Shown here piece by piece: positions 1,129-50,844 of a stretch of 64,000 nt of DNA; position 1 is the stretch's first letter, and the number at the start of each line of letters is the position of its first letter. This stretch comes from an uncultured Trueperaceae bacterium. Its GTDB lineage: Bacteria > Deinococcota > Deinococci > Deinococcales > Trueperaceae. The notes below the pieces were generated by a model. It searched no databases and had not been told where the DNA came from. It saw only the letters and a list, made by a program, of their open reading frames with translations. A program made the position numbers and the translations under genes. The stretch is taken from positions 128,001 through 192,000 of the forward strand of contig CAWFFU010000010.1 in NCBI GenBank assembly GCA_963815215.1. The letters run 5' to 3'.

Positions 1129-1869
1129 TCAGCCCGAGCCGGCCAGCTCCGCCAGGCTCCGGGCCACATCCCGGTCCACCACGCCGCCGTGGTAGGTGAT
1201 GGCCGTGCTGACGTCGAGCGGGGTCAGCTTGGCGAGCGAACGGACGGCCTCGTCCATGTCGGGCGTGACGGTGGGCCGGGGTCCCAGGAGCCGCCCTCCT
1301 TCGGAGACCAGCGCGTCGCCGCAGACGAGGGTGCGGCTGCGTTGCAGATAGAGGCTCAGGTGGCCGGGGGTGTGCCCCGGCGTGTGGATCACGGTGATGC
1401 CGCCGCAGTAAGGGAGCACCTCGCCGTCTTCGACCGTTCGGTCCACCGGGGCGTGGGGCGGGTCCTTGATGACCGCTTCCACCTGCGCGCGCTGTTCGGC
1501 GGGCAGGCCCTTCAGGCGCTCGGCCATGCGCCCCGGATCCATCTTGATGGGCGTCTTCTCCCCCTCGATGTAGGGCCTGTCGAGCGCGTGGGCCAACACC
1601 TCCACGTCGTGGCCGACGGCGCGCAGGAGCTCCGGCAGGCCGCCGATGTGGTCGATGTCCTGGTGGGTGAGGATGACGCGGGTGAGGCGTTCGAGGGGAA
1701 CGCCCGCCCGGCGGCACGCCTCGCGGATCGCCTCGAGCTGCCCCGGCATCCCGGTGTCGATCAAGATCGCGTCCTGCTCGTCCCACACCAGCGTGGGGTG
1801 GATGGCGCTGGGACCGCCAAGGAAGTCCATCGTCAGCTCGAGTGCCTCGACGCCTTCGGCTACATGCAT
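1129..1869 (-). CDS. MBL-fold metallo-hydrolase
   Basis: LIDTG, THQDIDHIGG, HTPGHTPGH, GDAL and YHG motifs; ATG at 1869 preferred. Confidence 0.9.
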   Translation of the reverse strand: MHVAEGVEALELTMDFLGGPSAIHPTLVWDEQDAILIDTGMPGQLEAIREACRRAGVPLERLTRVILTHQDIDHIGGLPELLRAVGHDVEVLAHALDRPYIEGEKTPIKMDPGRMAERLKGLPAEQRAQVEAVIKDPPHAPVDRTVEDGEVLPYCGGITVIHTPGHTPGHLSLYLQRSRTLVCGDALVSEGGRLLGPRPTVTPDMDEAVRSLAKLTPLDVSTAITYHGGVVDRDVARSLAELAGSG

Positions 1870-1998
1870 GTCGGCCTGCCCCCTATCGGTCCCCAAGGTA
1901 CGGCGCAGAGCGGGCGCCCGGCGTAGCGTGCGAGCCCGCTCCGGGGACGCCCGCGCTGACGAGGGTGGTCCCGGGCAGTGCTACGGTTCTCTCGAGCC

Positions 1999-14365: not shown

Positions 14366-15328
14366 ATGAACGCATCTTCGCGCTCTGCAGGGAAGCAGCG
14401 CGGGCTCGAGGCCTGCGTGACGCCACGAGGCATCATCGCGGCGCTGGCCATCGATCAGCGCGGCAGCCTGCGCAAGGCGCTCGCGAAGGCTGCGGGCAAG
14501 GGGCCCGCAGAGGTGACCGACGCCGATCTCGCCACCTTCAAGGCGGTGGTGACGCGCGAGCTGACGCCCTGGGCGTCGGCGGTGCTGCTCGACCCGCTCT
14601 ACGGCTGGGAGGCGGCCGCCGACCGGGCGCCCGCCGCGGGACTCATCGTCGCCTACGAGAAGAGCGGCTACGACGCCACCGACGAGCACCGCATGCCGAC
14701 GCTGTTGCCGGAGTGGTCGGCCGGCCGCTTGAAGGAGGCAGGCGCGGACGTCGTCAAGGTGCTGGTCTACTACGATCCCGCCAGCCCCGCTGAGGTCAAC
14801 GAACGCAAACAGGCGTTGGTCCGGCGCGTCGGTGAGGAGTGCCGGGAGGCCGACGTCGCCTACTTCCTGGAGCCGGTCACCTACGACGGCGCTGGCACGG
14901 GCGGGGCCGAGGCCAAGCCGGAACGGGTCACGCGAAGCATCGCCGAGTGGACCCGGCCCGAGTACGGCGTGGACGTGCTGAAGGTGGAGGTGCCGGTGGA
15001 TCCGAGCTGGCTCCAGCCCGGGGCCCTGGCGTCGCAGCGCGAGCGGGTGCTGTCCGCCATGCGGCAGGCGACGGAGGCGTCGACGGTGCCCCTCATCTTC
15101 CTGTCGGCGGGTGTGGACATGGAGCTCTTCGTCCGCTCGCTCGAGCTCGCCGGCGAGGCGGGCGCGCGCTTCAACGGTGTGCTGTGCGGCCGCGCCACCT
15201 GGAAGGGCGGTATCGCCGCCTATGCGGGCGGCGGGGAGCCGGCGCTGGAGGCGTGGCTGCGAAGTGAAGGGATGGCCAACATCGAGCGCCTCAACGAGGC
15301 GCTGGAAGCGAGCGCCGCCGCGCTCTAG
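14366..15328 (+). CDS. lacD: Tagatose-1,6-bisphosphate aldolase family (class I)
   Basis: ALAIDQRGSL, YEKSGYD, GVDVLKVEVPV, FLSAGV, GVLCGRATWK. Confidence 0.88.
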   Translation: MNASSRSAGKQRGLEACVTPRGIIAALAIDQRGSLRKALAKAAGKGPAEVTDADLATFKAVVTRELTPWASAVLLDPLYGWEAAADRAPAAGLIVAYEKSGYDATDEHRMPTLLPEWSAGRLKEAGADVVKVLVYYDPASPAEVNERKQALVRRVGEECREADVAYFLEPVTYDGAGTGGAEAKPERVTRSIAEWTRPEYGVDVLKVEVPVDPSWLQPGALASQRERVLSAMRQATEASTVPLIFLSAGVDMELFVRSLELAGEAGARFNGVLCGRATWKGGIAAYAGGGEPALEAWLRSEGMANIERLNEALEASAAAL

Positions 15329-15367
15329 CCGCCGCGCTCGAAGCGCCGCGCTCGAGGCGCCGTTCGC
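15316..15367 (+). repeat. 14-bp-period tandem repeat starting in the 3' end of lacD
   Basis: CGCCGCGCTC at 15316, 15330, 15344 and degenerate CGCCGTTCGC at 15358. Confidence 0.7.
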
Positions 15368-34875: not shown

Positions 34876-36600
34876 TCAGGCCCGGTCCGGCGTCCGGTCG
34901 CTCGGGCCGGTCCGGCGGGCGCGCAGGCGGTTGGCGAGCGCCAGCCGCAACTCGCCCCACGCTCCCACCGGCGAGTCGGCGATGGCCACGGCCTCCAGCG
35001 CTCTCAGCACCCCGACGCCGGGAGGGTGGGCCAGGTAGCGCGGCTCCCAGTCGGGATGGAACTTGCTCTTGAACACGTGCAGGCCCTTGAAGTTGTACAG
35101 GGCGTTGCCGCGCTCGAAGACCGTCGCGAGCGCGCGCTCGGTGAGCGGCGCCCGCGCCGAGGCGTCGAGCCCGCTCAGCGCCGACAGGCCGAGGTCCGCC
35201 CGCTCCACCCCTTGCTCGCGCAAGCGTTCCAGGAGCCGCACGAACAGGAACAGCATGGTCTCGGAGGGCGCGCCGTCGACGAAGCGCATGAGGTCGACCG
35301 CCAGCCCGGAGCGGCCGTACTCGGGGATGAGGTTCACGAACGCCTGCACCGCGGCGTCGGGTCCTTCCACGGTGACCACCGGGCAGCCGGCGATGTAGGC
35401 CTCGTCGTAGCGGCCCAGCGAGAAGTCCTTCTCGGAGGTACGCCGGCTCCGCAGCCACGCCGCGGACACGGCGGCCAGGGCGTGCAGGCGTTCGGGCGGT
35501 TGCGGCGGGTCGTGCCACACCACCCGGTACCCCTCCCGGTCCATCCGGTTCACGCCGGCGCGCAGGTTCTTGTTGCGGGCACCGGAGAGGGTGAACGACG
35601 CCAGCGCGACGACCGCCTGCTGGCCGATGAGGGTGGTCTGCAGGCCGGCGGCCCGGTAGTGCGCCCGGGCGTCGGGCCGTACCTGGTAGAAGACCGGTCG
35701 CCAGGCGCGCTCCCGGCAGAAGCTCACGAACGCGGCGGCCGCGGCGGCGGCGTCCTCGTCCGGGCCGATCGGGTCGCCCAGCGCCAGCCCGACGTTGCCG
35801 ACCGGCTTGTAGGCGACGACCGATCCGCCTGGGGTGAACAGGTACTGCTTGTTGCCCAGCAGGGCGATGTGGGCCAGGCTGGAGCGACCGTGCGCATCGA
35901 CGATGGCCTGCGCAGCCCGGCGCTCCGGCTCGCCGGCGCGGTCGCGTTCCACCACCGGCCGCAGGGCCATCACCACGGCGGTTCCGAGGCTGGCCGCCGC
36001 CAGCAGGTAGATGCTGTCGAGGAAGAAGTGCGCCAGCCGCGTGTGCGGCAGGGGAGGGGCGCCGAAGGTGAACATCGAGACGGTGGCCGACAGTGCCTGC
36101 GGGAGGCTCAGCCGCAGGTGGAACTCGCGGTCGAGTGCGTCGTAGCCGAGGGTGCCGTAGAGCAGCGTCACGAACACCGCCAACGCCAGCACGCGCAGCG
36201 CCATGCGCGCCGTCGGGTGGTCGTGGCGCGCCACGAACTGGTGCCGGCCCAGCAACAACAGGCCGAGCATCAGCAGGCTGACGGCGGCCGCCTCGAGCTC
36301 GAGCCCCTTGAGCAAGTTGGCCAGCGTGCCCAGGCTCAGTACCGCCACGCTCAACCACCAGGCGTTGCGTTGCCGTCGTGCCAGCCCGCGCGCCAGGACC
36401 AGCAGGGCGAAGCCTGCCAGGCCGGCGGCGAGACGGCTGGCGGCGCGGTACTCGAACGGGACCACGGCCCGTAGCAGGTCGAGGCGTTCGGGCACGACGG
36501 CCTTGGCCGCCGACCAGATGTCGACCAGACCCACCGCGAACACCAGCAGCACCGCCAGCCGCACCCACCCGCCGGCGGCGAGGTGAAGGCCCCGCCTCAC
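34876..36600 (-). CDS. MprF-like aminoacyl-phosphatidylglycerol synthase domain protein (DUF2156) with about 6 TM segments
   Basis: LALGDPIG, EKDFSLG, VDLMR, LGLSAL, YNFKGLHVFKSKFHPDWEPRYL. Confidence 0.88.
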   Translation of the reverse strand: MRRGLHLAAGGWVRLAVLLVFAVGLVDIWSAAKAVVPERLDLLRAVVPFEYRAASRLAAGLAGFALLVLARGLARRQRNAWWLSVAVLSLGTLANLLKGLELEAAAVSLLMLGLLLLGRHQFVARHDHPTARMALRVLALAVFVTLLYGTLGYDALDREFHLRLSLPQALSATVSMFTFGAPPLPHTRLAHFFLDSIYLLAAASLGTAVVMALRPVVERDRAGEPERRAAQAIVDAHGRSSLAHIALLGNKQYLFTPGGSVVAYKPVGNVGLALGDPIGPDEDAAAAAAAFVSFCRERAWRPVFYQVRPDARAHYRAAGLQTTLIGQQAVVALASFTLSGARNKNLRAGVNRMDREGYRVVWHDPPQPPERLHALAAVSAAWLRSRRTSEKDFSLGRYDEAYIAGCPVVTVEGPDAAVQAFVNLIPEYGRSGLAVDLMRFVDGAPSETMLFLFVRLLERLREQGVERADLGLSALSGLDASARAPLTERALATVFERGNALYNFKGLHVFKSKFHPDWEPRYLAHPPGVGVLRALEAVAIADSPVGAWGELRLALANRLRARRTGPSDRTPDRA

Positions 36601-36648
36601 GGTGCTCGCCTCACGGTGCTCGCCTCACGATGTTCGCCTCACGGTGCC
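36593..36648 (-). repeat. 4 x 14-bp tandem repeat forming a chain of three GTGA-coupled 5-codon mini-ORFs
   Basis: TCAC at 36597, 36611, 36625, 36639; minus-strand unit AGCACCGTGAGGCG. Confidence 0.85.
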
Positions 36649-37298
36649 TGCCTCGCGCCGCGGCGCGCGCGCGCACCCAGCAGCCAGCCGAGCGCGCCGC
36701 CGTAGACGACCGTGAAGAGGTGCTCGGCGCCGGCGTTGACGTCGCGCCCCGGCACGCCATGCGCCGTCGCCGCGGCGAGCCAGCCCACCGCCGTGACGAC
36801 CGCGAAGGCGGGCACAAGCCAGCGCCAGCGCGGCGTCATCGCCAGGGCCAGCGCCAGCGCCCCGAAGTAGCCGGCCGACGCGCCGACGTCGCGAGCGTTG
36901 CGTACCAGCCCAGCGGTGGGCGGCAGCACGTAGAGTAGCGCCAGCGTCAGGAACGACAGCACGTGTAGTCCCAGGAACGCCAGGGCCGCCCACCAGCTGC
37001 CCGCTCGGCGTTCGAGCAGGCCCACCCCGAGGCCGGTCAGGGCCAGCGCCTGCAGCAGGCTCCAGGGGTCGGTGGTGAACCAGGCGGCGCCGAGGAGGCG
37101 CAGTAGATCCAGCGAGAGTCCGTCGGTCGGTCGGAATCCGGCATCGTGGATCACGTAGCGCGGCACCGCGTGCCAGGCGCTGCCGGTCAGCAGGCCGACC
37201 ACGACGAGCACGAGGAGCAACGTCAGCGTGACGGGATAGCGCCGTAGGCCGCGGAGCCTGGGAGGGGTACGAGAGGAGGGTAGGCCCGAGGACGCCAT
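36639..37298 (-). CDS. Integral membrane protein, rhomboid-like
   Basis: About 6 TM segments; LLERRAGSW, DVGASAG, EHL; start at ATG 37298 avoids overlap with the divergent gene. Confidence 0.65.
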   Translation of the reverse strand: MASSGLPSSRTPPRLRGLRRYPVTLTLLLVLVVVGLLTGSAWHAVPRYVIHDAGFRPTDGLSLDLLRLLGAAWFTTDPWSLLQALALTGLGVGLLERRAGSWWAALAFLGLHVLSFLTLALLYVLPPTAGLVRNARDVGASAGYFGALALALAMTPRWRWLVPAFAVVTAVGWLAAATAHGVPGRDVNAGAEHLFTVVYGGALGWLLGARARRGARQAP

Positions 37299-37405
37299 CC
37301 ACCGCCAGGATAAGCCCCGCCCGCTCCCCGAATCGGGCCGGAGACGACCGTGAGGGCGTGTCTGGGGCGTGCCGAGCCGGCGATGAGCGTGGTATGTCGG
37401 TAGGC

Positions 37406-38209
37406 ATGAGCGAGGCGGCGCTAGGCAGTCCGTGGTGGGGCGAGATGGAGCTGACGCCGGGGGAGCTTCGCCACTGGCACGTTGGACCCTACCGACTGTG
37501 GGTGCGGGCGATGGCACTGGAGTGGCGCCTGTGGAGCCTGTCGAGCGTCGAGGCCATGGCCGAGGAGATGGTGCTCGGCGCCGAGGCGCAGGACGGCGAG
37601 GTGCCGGCCGAGGCGGTGCTCACCCGGGTGGGGTTGAACTCGGCGCGTCCGGTCCTCGAGCTGCGGCCGGCGCTGGCCGACCGCGACGTGGTGGTGCGCC
37701 CCGACACCCCGGTGGTGGTGCCGGGCGGGGCGAGGCTCGAGCTCTACGTCACCACGCCGGTGTGGGTCATCGTGCGTGCCGGCGGGGGCGTGCCGCTCCT
37801 CGATGAGCCCAGCCTCCGCCTCTCCGATACCTGGTTCGGCCCCAACACGCTGGAGGGGGAGCTTGCCTACGCCATCCGCACGGCGGCGAGGCTCGATCTC
37901 GAGGAGCTGCCGCGCCGCCCGCACCGGGCCATCACCAAGGTGGTCGTCGTCAACGGAGCGCGCGAGGCGCTGGTGCTCGAGAAGCTCAAGGTGCCGGTCG
38001 CCGGCCTGGTGCTCTACACGTCCCAGGGCAGCGGACTGTGGACCGACCAGGTCACGCTCGAGCGCAAGCAAGGGAGTGGCGTGGCCGAGGCATCGGTGGG
38101 CGCCGGGCCGAACGTACCGGGCGTGGACGCCGAGCGCATCGCCGAGCCCCGCGTCACGACGCCGTCACGCTTCTCGCTGAACGCCTTCGGGCGGCTGCTG
38201 GGCGTGTGA
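37406..38209 (+). CDS. Conserved hypothetical protein (DUF432-like) upstream of MscS
   Basis: LRPALADRDVVVRP, LSDTWFGPNTLEGELAY; co-oriented with MscS. Confidence 0.6.
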   Translation: MSEAALGSPWWGEMELTPGELRHWHVGPYRLWVRAMALEWRLWSLSSVEAMAEEMVLGAEAQDGEVPAEAVLTRVGLNSARPVLELRPALADRDVVVRPDTPVVVPGGARLELYVTTPVWVIVRAGGGVPLLDEPSLRLSDTWFGPNTLEGELAYAIRTAARLDLEELPRRPHRAITKVVVVNGAREALVLEKLKVPVAGLVLYTSQGSGLWTDQVTLERKQGSGVAEASVGAGPNVPGVDAERIAEPRVTTPSRFSLNAFGRLLGV

Positions 38210-49457: not shown

Positions 49458-50216
49458 TCAGCCCTGCTCGAGAGGACGGATCAACACCTCGTTGATGCTC
49501 ACCCGCTTCGGGCGCGTGACCACGTAGCGGATGGCGTCGGCGATGTCCTCGCTCTGCAGCATCTCCATCTTGGCGATGTTGGTCTCGTAGCGTTCCTTGG
49601 TGGCGGCGTGAGGGATGTGGTCGGTCAGCTCGGTGGCGACCACCCCGGGCTCGATGAGCGTCACCTTGATGCCGTCGCCGTTGACCTCCCGCCGCAGGGC
49701 CTCACTGAAGCCGTTCACGCCCCACTTGGTGGCGTTGTAACCCCCTTGGGTGGGGCCCGCGAAGCGTCCGGAGACCGACGAGACGTTGACGATGTGCCCG
49801 CCGCCGCGCGAGCGCATCGGGGCGATCGCCGCTCGGCACGCCACCATCAATCCCAGCAGGTTGATATCGATCATGCGCTCCCAGTCCGCGGGGTCGGTCT
49901 CCTCGATCGGCCCCAGGAACATGACGCCGGCGTTGTTGACCAGCACGTCGAGGCCGCCGAGCGCTTCGACGGTGGCGTCGACCGCCCGTTGTGCGCCGTT
50001 GCGGGTGGCGAGGTCGCCGACGTGCACGAAGACCTCGCTGCCGGCCCCGCGCAACTCGGCGGCCAGCGCCTCGAGCCGGTCGGCTCGGCGGGCGCTCAAC
50101 GCGAGGTTGGCGCCTTCGCGGGCCAGCGCACGGGCCGTGGCCTCCCCGATCCCGCTCGAGGCCCCCGTCACCAGCGCCACCTTGCCGTGAAGCGTGCCTA
50201 CTGTGGTTTCGTTCAT
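49458..50216 (-). CDS. SDR family oxidoreductase
   Basis: TGASSGIG, NNAG, YNATK. Confidence 0.92.
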   Translation of the reverse strand: MNETTVGTLHGKVALVTGASSGIGEATARALAREGANLALSARRADRLEALAAELRGAGSEVFVHVGDLATRNGAQRAVDATVEALGGLDVLVNNAGVMFLGPIEETDPADWERMIDINLLGLMVACRAAIAPMRSRGGGHIVNVSSVSGRFAGPTQGGYNATKWGVNGFSEALRREVNGDGIKVTLIEPGVVATELTDHIPHAATKERYETNIAKMEMLQSEDIADAIRYVVTRPKRVSINEVLIRPLEQG

Positions 50217-50800
50217 GCGTCCGTCCCTTCGTGGCCCGGATCGCGCTCCGCGCGCAGCCAGGCGAGTGCGTGGTTCTGGAGCTCCTCGGTACGCTCGGCG
50301 GCGACCACGATCACACCGTCGGCGTCGGCGAGGACCAGATCGCCGGGAGCGATGCTCACCCCCGCGACCTCCACGGCGACATCCAGCGATCCGGCCGAGG
50401 TCGGCTCGCCGCGGGCCGGCAGGCTGCCGCGGGCGCGGACGGCCAGGCCGGTGGCGGCGACCGCGCGAACATCGCGAACGTAGCCGTCGACGATCACGCC
50501 GGCTGCGCCGCGTTCCAGGGCGACGGCCGTGAGCCGGTCGCCCCATAGCGCGGCCTCGAGGCCGGCCGCCGCGATCACCAGGACCTCGCCGGGTCGCAGC
50601 GCCTGCGCGCCTGCGCGCACCGCCGCCAGGTCGCCGTCCGGCGCGGACACGGTGCGTGCGACGCCGGCGAAGTCCCCGCCGAGGTGCACCTGCCACACCG
50701 GACCGGTGGCGCGGGCCACGCCGCGGTCGCACAGCATGCAGCTGACGCCGCCGTCGGCCAGGGCCGGGGCGAGCAGGCGTGCGGCGTCGCCGGCGCTCAC
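50213..50800 (-). CDS. RraA/HMG-aldolase family protein
   Basis: FAGVARTV, ALWGD, DGYVRDV, PGDLVLADADGVIVV. Confidence 0.85.
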   Translation of the reverse strand: MSAGDAARLLAPALADGGVSCMLCDRGVARATGPVWQVHLGGDFAGVARTVSAPDGDLAAVRAGAQALRPGEVLVIAAAGLEAALWGDRLTAVALERGAAGVIVDGYVRDVRAVAATGLAVRARGSLPARGEPTSAGSLDVAVEVAGVSIAPGDLVLADADGVIVVAAERTEELQNHALAWLRAERDPGHEGTDA

Positions 50801-50844
50801 GAGCGGCGCCTCACGAGCGGTAACTCACGAGGCGTGCCTCACAG
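50796..50844 (-). repeat. Diverged 4 x 14-bp repeat forming a chain of three GTGA-coupled 5-codon mini-ORFs
   Basis: TCAC at 50797, 50811, 50825, 50839. Confidence 0.8.

Follow-up and report, generated by a model that had tools for sequence, protein, structure and literature searches.

How does the stop/start overlap between two genes come to stand four times in a row, and what would the additional copies do? The question is raised by a 64,000-nucleotide stretch of DNA (the window) from an uncultured Trueperaceae bacterium (GenBank assembly GCA_963815215.1, contig CAWFFU010000010.1, positions 128,001 to 192,000 of the forward strand), whose metagenome-assembled genome (MAG) of 3.32 Mb in 14 contigs, with 70% GC, is called G000 here. 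On the minus strand of the window the gene of a multi-pass membrane protein, possibly rhomboid-like, is followed by the gene of an MprF-like protein, and at their junction the motif GTGA, in which a GTG start overlaps a TGA stop, occurs four times at an exact period of 14 nt. It is regarded as likely that this array is a young slippage duplication of a translationally coupled junction, which survived because the length of its unit is of the form 3n+2, and that it would act as a passive relay of termination and reinitiation.

On the minus strand the upstream gene ends in ...CAG GCA CCG TGA and the array follows as GTGAGGCGAACATC GTGAGGCGAGCACC GTGAGGCGAGCACC GTGAGGCGGGGCC, the first bases of the four GTGA lying at 36642, 36628, 36614 and 36600. 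The upstream open reading frame (ORF) closes at the first TGA and the MprF-like ORF opens at the fourth GTG, so that the stop and the true start are separated by a gap of 38 nt, and the three GTG in front of the true start open frames of five codons each (Table 1). Tandem Repeats Finder (TRF) reports the array at 36593..36647 with a period of 14, 3.9 copies, 90% matches and a score of 96, together with a 28-nt row that spans 36591..36654. The motif GAGG lies 8 nt upstream of each of the four GTG, including the first one, for which it is provided by the degenerate proto-unit GCGAGGCAGGCACC, and the true MprF-like start; GAGG is only a 4-nt match to the anti-Shine-Dalgarno (anti-SD) sequence, CCUCC, which is present in the 3' end of the 16S rRNA of G000 (...GGATCACCTCCTTTCT). 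TGA occurs in all three frames of the array, as follows arithmetically from a period of 3n+2. An initial annotation, made from the DNA letters, had described this anatomy, namely the four GTGA, the period, the peptides MRRTS, MRRAP and MRRAP, the position of GAGG and the stops in three frames, and every detail was confirmed. The array is not a product of chance, because with an RTGA (ATGA or GTGA) frequency of 0.0059 in G000 a run of four RTGA at one fixed period is expected only 0.008 times per period in the whole genome.

The age of the array can be judged from the same junction in eight genomes of the genus (G000 to G005, G007 and G008). Overlapping stop and start codons join the rhomboid-like ORF to the MprF-like ORF in all eight, the upstream ORF closing at the first TGA and the MprF-like ORF opening at the last RTG. 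A single RTGA is found in six (G001, G002, G003, G004, G005 and G007), three units in the nearest relative, G008 (92% identical over a 501-nt stretch), and four in G000. The first unit of G008 reads TTGA, which keeps the upstream stop and offers TTG as a possible start. Two metagenome contigs add to this picture: X1 is identical through the four-unit array, and X2 carries the G008-type change at 36642 and has a loose end that fits one unit fewer; several of the metagenome contigs end in or beside the array, and as a set they give alleles and not a copy-number spectrum. In its ancestral state the junction had the canonical 4-nt overlap of stop and start, RTGA; the array expanded recently, in one lineage, its youth being evident from the single overlap in six of the eight genomes. 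The gain or loss of a unit leaves the downstream gene intact, since the true start is always that of the last unit, and both the three- and the four-unit forms are intact; the suggestion of the initial annotation that the number of units can change without breaking the stop/start phasing is thus borne out by the four units of G000 and the three of its nearest relative. A phase-variable contingency locus was also considered and rejected: each unit closes the preceding frame, and there is no on/off switch of frame.

The letters around the junction suggest how the expansion began. The proto-unit contains GCGAGGC and the true junction, 14 nt away, GTGAGGC, and this near-repeat could have been the seed of a slipped-strand duplication in which the 14-nt piece holding the overlap was copied by replication slippage. 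The genome is rich in tandem arrays of 11-15 nt: of the 1185 arrays that TRF finds in its 3.32 Mb, 56 have a period of 11, 83 of 13 and 68 of 14, and the density of tandem arrays is about two to three times that of G020, a member of another genus of the family. Arrays of period 13 are as common as those of period 14, hence the raw supply of arrays is not skewed to 14.

An origin by insertion has little in its favour. A dimeric or oligomeric factor might recognize tandem 14-mers, or the unit could be a small mobile element that inserts at start codons, and it is true that units of different loci share RTGA(A)GG and that one unit in a distant genome, G040, ATGAGGCAAACACC, is identical to the unit of G008 at 12 of 14 positions. 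However, with up to two mismatches allowed the 14-mer is matched 93 times in the genome, within the range of 22-845 obtained for 20 shuffled versions, and only here does it occur in tandem; accordingly, a dispersed or mobile unit was rejected. The units of the other arrays match the flanks of their own junctions, the letters they have in common are the start, the stop and the GG resembling a Shine-Dalgarno (SD) sequence, for which the scan itself selects, and a consensus scan of 36300..37700 found no promoter-like site, terminator-like site or inverted repeat. A set of protein or RNA operators, or a mobile element, is hence considered highly improbable.

If the array arose by duplication of a coupled junction, the length of the unit would decide what became of the copies. 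With a unit of 3n+2, the frame opened by a copied RTG ends at the TGA of the following unit, precisely where the next RTG stands. After terminating on the upstream gene, a ribosome would restart at the overlapping GTG, translate five codons, terminate and restart, reaching the true start after three hops, so that one event of termination-reinitiation would be replaced by four and the 38-nt gap would be bridged; the GAGG ahead of each GTG is a weak SD motif. A copy of 3n+1, on the other hand, would send restarting ribosomes out of frame over the true start. The junction has the shared RTGA of a coupled overlapping pair (single in six of the eight genomes, a chain in G008 and G000) and an SD-like GAGG in the 3' end of the upstream frame; in a coupled pair, translation of the MprF-like gene would depend on that of the upstream gene. 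In the available part of one study, strict coupling was reported at 13 of 14 overlapping gene pairs tested (PMC6728339), and in the available part of another, on native pairs of Escherichia coli and Haloferax, +14 nt cut reinitiation by 40-80% and +38 nt nearly abolished it (PMC10666635). Because the gap is 38 nt here as well, coupling by reinitiation should be lost in this junction without the inner starts and stops. The relay would most likely be a tolerated by-product that keeps the coupling, probably with some loss at each hop, and not a purpose-built regulator.

The proposal that the unit length matters was addressed with the RTGA chains of the genome. Genes were predicted by a simple caller of our own, based on codon log-odds with a minimum score of 30; its stops are reliable and its starts are not. 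Chains of at least three RTGA in G000 number 0, 1, 5, 11, 0 and 1 at periods 10, 11, 13, 14, 16 and 17, with 1.36 expected per period. When chains were required to lie between two coding ORFs, the upstream one closing at the first TGA and the downstream one opening at the last RTG, five were of the 3n+2 class (one of period 11 with four 4-codon frames, three of period 14 and one of period 17), three were of the 3n class, all of them N-terminal repeats, and none was 3n+1. Across ten genomes of the genus, with the counts at periods 14, 13 and 11 collapsed to distinct arrays, there are 19 arrays of four RTGA with a period of 14, 4 with a period of 13 and 1 with a period of 11. Among the period-11 arrays of G000 and its relatives, G000's own (C7:12020) is the only one at a gene junction; no orthologue of it was found in the five congeners searched. 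Long ORFs flank both sides of period-14 arrays in G000 (three arrays), G007, G012 and G040, the latter two being members of other genera, and of none of the 13 period-13 arrays among those listed. That 3n+1 arrays are missing from junctions, though arrays of period 13 are as common as those of period 14, argues that restart on copied RTGs happens and that selection sorts the duplications.

The same tendency was found when arrays were placed relative to stop codons. Among the non-3n arrays outside coding DNA, 18 of 73 hold the stop codon of a gene (9.4 +/- 2.6 by random placement), and these are divided into 15 of 44 at 3n+2 and 3 of 29 at 3n+1. Ten TRF arrays that bridge co-directional genes were inspected in sequence, and three of them proved not to be relays: C4:134803 is a duplicated stop whose units are devoid of starts, C10:101828 is an array of low quality that lies within the downstream gene, next to a simple ATGA overlap, and C9:127046 consists of a 10-nt repeat within an unremarkable spacer of 60 nt.

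Single hops, which need no array, were counted as well. The 2580 genes called in G000 include 1895 that stop at TGA, 740 that stop at RTGA and 360 canonical overlaps. Coding-like ORFs that start with RTGA, 5-61 nt past the stop of a gene, were sorted by spacing, their starts being unmapped. Behind an RTGA stop (the 740 genes) the 3n+2 and 3n+1 spacings number 60 and 9 (binomial 2e-10), whereas the controls give 64 and 42 behind a YTGA (CTGA or TTGA) stop and 21 and 26 behind TAG or TAA; against both controls pooled (85:68) the difference is marked (Fisher 3e-6). In nearly all of the 3n+2 cases of G000 the frame of the first RTG is open to the TGA on the start of the next gene, with a bridging frame of 2-20 codons. 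In G020, of which 2.4 of 2.92 Mb were used, the counts are 27 and 9 behind RTGA stops (binomial 0.004; 16:4 in the first 1.2 Mb alone), as compared to 57 and 54 behind YTGA and TAG/TAA stops together (Fisher 0.019). The enrichment of 3n+2 chains, which the initial annotation had put forward as a test, is therefore positive both against 3n+1 and against the controls, and the 3n+2 length class of junction arrays seems to be kept by selection.

These counts bear directly on the simplest alternative, according to which the inner GTGs are unused, the MprF-like gene is freshly initiated at GAGG-N8-GTG, and the array is untranslated, neutral junk, a 38-nt spacer awaiting decay. GAGG does stand 8 nt ahead of the true start, 196 of the 360 canonical overlaps in G000 (54%) carry an SD-like motif, which makes fresh initiation plausible, the array is young, and the 161-nt junction RNA folds no better than its shuffles (z=-0.01). 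If the copied RTGs were unused, however, units of 3n+1 and 3n+2 would be equally harmless, and yet both the junction arrays and the single hops are strongly 3n+2; in addition, a 17-nt hop at another locus, C3:781240, keeps its length and both RTGA in six of six genomes while its inner sequence drifts. Neutral junk may apply to this one young array, but it leaves the frame bias unexplained, and it is judged unlikely. The alternative offered by the initial annotation, neutral slippage duplication of the junction, stands in part: duplication of the junction is upheld as the origin, and 'neutral' is too strong, as the frame bias indicates that selection sorts the survivors.

The architecture of the junction recurs in a second case within the window and in others in G000 and its relatives. 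The second array of the window (relay 2, Table 1) has the same build and an unrelated origin: a 516-aa ORF ends CTG TGA and the final GTGA opens an RraA-family gene at 50213..50800(-). No NCBIfam match was found for the 516-aa ORF, for which Pfam was not scanned. G008 has the same four GTGA between flanks that are 98% identical, and its spacers differ at 6 of 30 positions. At locus C12:44719 a 14-nt array has four RTGA in G000, three in G008 and three in G003, and one RTGA is present in G005, G002 and G007. At C8:68841 four RTGA are preceded by a CTGA 14 nt earlier; the phase is kept, the spacers are about half identical, and G008 has the same four. In each of the six genomes compared at C3:781240, the 17-nt hop ends on the downstream GTGA; G000, G008 and G003 have two hops, G007 has one, and G002 and G005 have one that is separated from a CTGA stop by a short spacer. 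The hexapeptide encoded by this hop differs in all five sequences read (MTEPLR, MTEKVP, MTGQAS, MMESAP and MTVLRP; that of G008 was not read). The older hops thus keep length and phase and not content, which is suggestive, though not a test, of a frame that would matter only by being translated. A regulatory leader peptide or attenuator was rejected, as the peptides of the older hops differ between genomes and the junction RNA shows no special fold.

Two observations concern relay 2 and its upstream gene. The orthologous junction of G003 (minus strand, about 1760..1910 of the piece L016) lacks the repeat; its single frame, of 18 codons and 56 nt, shares an ATGA with the upstream stop and a GTGA with the start of the RraA-family gene. 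Downstream of copies of the 516-aa gene, paralogous or orthologous, in G005, G002, G007 and G008, a conserved CTTCCTTGAG...GGCTACACTGAG motif ends 6-7 nt ahead of an ATG and resembles a -35/-10 promoter, from which a leaderless mRNA would be transcribed.

A wider proposal would take bridging frames in Trueperaceae as a general means, maintained by selection, to carry terminating ribosomes across gaps; they would be born by 3n+2 duplication of RTGA junctions, the number of hops would set the expression ratio, and the 14-nt arrays would represent the newborn stage of a class in whose older members, such as the 17-nt hop, purifying selection would act on length and phase alone. This extension is tentative and, at present, appears doubtful.

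The initial annotation went further and proposed a dedicated modular device, in which the number of units would be selected to set the ratio of MprF-like to upstream protein, out-of-frame ribosomes might be caught, and arginine might be sensed through the AGG-CGA codons. At three loci close relatives do differ in the number of units (4 vs 3 at the MprF-like junction, 4/3/3 at C12:44719, 6 vs 8 in G003 and G004), each unit keeps a start, a stop and GAGG, older relays persist across species, and output would scale with copy number if the efficiency of a hop were less than full. Against this, six of the eight genomes manage with the ancestral single overlap at the junction and the array is young, the gene pairs share no theme (rhomboid-like/MprF-like, 516-aa ORF/RraA-family and others), and the stops in three frames follow from the period. 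Regarding arginine, AGG, CGA, ACA and GCA each make up 2-4% of the codons of their own amino acid in G000, and GTGAGGCG is already the start of the gene in G001, G003 and G004, hence the rare Arg codons are the junction's own letters, inherited with it; the peptides of the older relays are not conserved, and nothing points to sensing by the Arg-Arg pair. Selection for a tunable device is thus not supported and is considered quite unlikely.

Several points weigh against the passive relay itself. Each GTG, the true start included, has its own GAGG, so that the MprF-like gene could start by fresh initiation, and translation of the mini-ORFs and the hand-over of ribosomes from one to the next are presumed. 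The frame statistics rest on the simple gene caller and on 'coding-like' ORFs with unmapped starts, and a few genes were counted at two candidate starts. The YTGA control also leans to 3n+2 (64:42), which is not fully explained, and the effect is weaker in the second genus, with an odds ratio of 2.8 in G020. The search for relay loci required intact RTGA chains and so favours conserved-looking cases, and the comparison of relay 2 between G000 and G008, with 16 of 16 GTGA letters and 24 of 30 spacer positions kept, is not significant alone.

Table 1. Coordinates of the two relays of the window and of the genes at the rhomboid-like/MprF-like junction.
Feature	Position	Strand	Basis or remark
Upstream gene, multi-pass membrane protein	36639..37517	-	Longest ORF 292 aa; ends CCG TGA at 36641..36639
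Degenerate proto-unit GCGAGGCAGGCACC in the 3' end of the upstream gene	36643..36656	-	11/14 identical to the unit
Array proper, four GTGA at 14-nt period	36597..36642	-	Sequence reading, TRF
Mini-ORF 1, GTG AGG CGA ACA TCG TGA (MRRTS)	36625..36642	-	GTG overlaps the TGA of the upstream gene; TGA overlaps the next GTG
Mini-ORF 2, GTG AGG CGA GCA CCG TGA (MRRAP)	36611..36628	-	Sequence reading
Mini-ORF 3, GTG AGG CGA GCA CCG TGA (MRRAP)	36597..36614	-	TGA overlaps the start of the MprF-like gene
MprF-like gene, 574 aa	34876..36600	-	Transmembrane N-terminal part and lysyl-phosphatidylglycerol synthase C-terminal domain; start at the fourth GTG
Relay 2, four GTGA	50797..50842	-	Same build, unrelated origin; GTGAGGCACGCCTC GTGAGTTACCGCTC GTGAGGCGCCGCTC, then GTGA

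The identity of the flanking genes is established to different degrees. The MprF-like protein matches PF09924 (LPG_synthase_C) in Pfam at 1.7e-77 and the NCBIfam model bifunc_MprF (NF033480) at 1.1e-132 with 444 bits, which is below the cut-off of 600 of that model; with one match strong and the other under its cut-off, the name 'MprF-like', which had been given by the initial annotation, is fair. In G004:C7 the MprF-like gene matches in two pieces, residues 4-232 and 227-564, that lie in different frames, a frameshift or an assembly error. The upstream gene has its likely start near 37220 (about 193 aa) according to the codon-based gene caller, and no Pfam or NCBIfam match above default thresholds was found for its protein. 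The 193-aa form has an Atlas language-model feature score of 0.93 to clusters of PF20401, and PF01694 is matched at E=0.026; the designation rhomboid-like is used here as a lead only.

Tandem repeats of related appearance were also observed at places other than coupled junctions. At 15314..15362 on the plus strand of the window, a 14-nt array (3.5 copies, 88% matches) begins at the TAG stop of a gene; it is a duplicated 3' gene end devoid of start codons, the same habit of duplication at a non-coupled gene end. A 14-nt GTGA array of five units, with a 12-nt GTGAACGAAC array after it and no long flanking ORF, lies in non-genic DNA at G000:C11:275709-275819 and is kept with changes at G008:C5:53144. 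The longest chains seen are orthologous 14-nt GTGA arrays of 6 and 8 units at G003:C4:956921-956994 and G004:C14:102273-102374, which start at the stop of a gene and have no long ORF past the last unit. An identical 13-nt GTGA chain, flanks included, is found at G000:C6:608-637 and G000:C9:152263-152292; in the assembly these are probably one and the same repeat, or contig ends that overlap. Genomes from two further families of the order contain long arrays of heptamers, (GTGATGG)n and (ATGAGCT)n, at G033:C4:358581.. and on several contigs of G036; they resemble the intergenic TAACTGA heptamer repeats of Beggiatoaceae, as presented in the accessible part of that report (PMC4679880).

If the frame rule holds, such arrays would be a natural experiment on termination-reinitiation. 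The missing 3n+1 copies, at places where the copied start overlaps a stop, would then be indirect genomic evidence that restart occurs and that restart in the wrong frame is costly, and the ratio of 3n+2 to 3n+1 among RTGA-to-RTGA spacings would be a cheap genomic gauge of how far a lineage relies on coupling. The junction described here offers a ready-made allelic series of one, three and four units for the efficiency of a single hop. For annotation, true starts may sit several RTGA units past the previous stop, and the small frames in between are not genes.

Tandem junction relays or a 3n+2 rule were not found described in a search of the literature that was incomplete, most subscription journals being outside its scope. 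The frame rule is the interesting part of the present case, supported by counts in two genera and by the conserved older hops; the origin of the array is ordinary. The joints themselves are familiar. As in the canonical ATGA/GTGA coupled pairs described in the available parts of two studies (PMC6728339; PMC10666635), every joint of the relay overlaps by 4 nt (-4) and has an SD-like motif upstream; those, however, are single joints between two real genes, and here three joints pass through five-codon frames that encode nothing conserved. In leaders of Mycobacterium tuberculosis, the accessible portion of a preprint (bioRxiv 10.1101/2022.06.01.494293) reports NUGA overlaps from upstream ORF (uORF) to ORF and from uORF to uORF, for which termination-reinitiation was proposed. 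The single-hop bridging ORFs counted in this work are of the same kind, but the uORFs described there are located in 5' leaders and are not tandem copies of a junction, and that portion states no frame rule for repeated units. Bicistronic designs, as outlined in the available part of PMC12548453, also employ a short ORF that ends on the downstream start and drives its translation, although these are engineered and have a single hop.

The nearest known case is that of the mycobacterial interspersed repetitive units (MIRU). According to the available part of the same source (PMC12548453), MIRUs stand in tandem between co-transcribed genes, the gene that follows is coupled, at -4 nt, to the ORF of a unit, and their insertion hardly disturbs expression; in the senX3-regX3 operon the copy number varies by strain, with three 77-bp units or two of 77 bp and one of 53 bp (PMC4213456, available part). 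The array resembles them in that tandem units lie between two operon genes with the ORF of each unit joined by a 4-nt overlap, and in that copy number varies, being four or three units here, with contig X2 fitting the three-unit form; by our own arithmetic, 77 and 53 are both 3n+2, the same length class as 14. On the other hand, in what is available of these sources MIRUs are 53-77 bp long, dispersed, apparently mobile and confined to mycobacteria, whereas the unit described here is a 14-nt local copy of a junction in Trueperaceae, and the dispersal of one consensus unit that defines a MIRU was not observed, given the match counts above and the lack of any other tandem site. By analogy, the array of the rhomboid-like/MprF-like junction would work like a MIRU array without being one.

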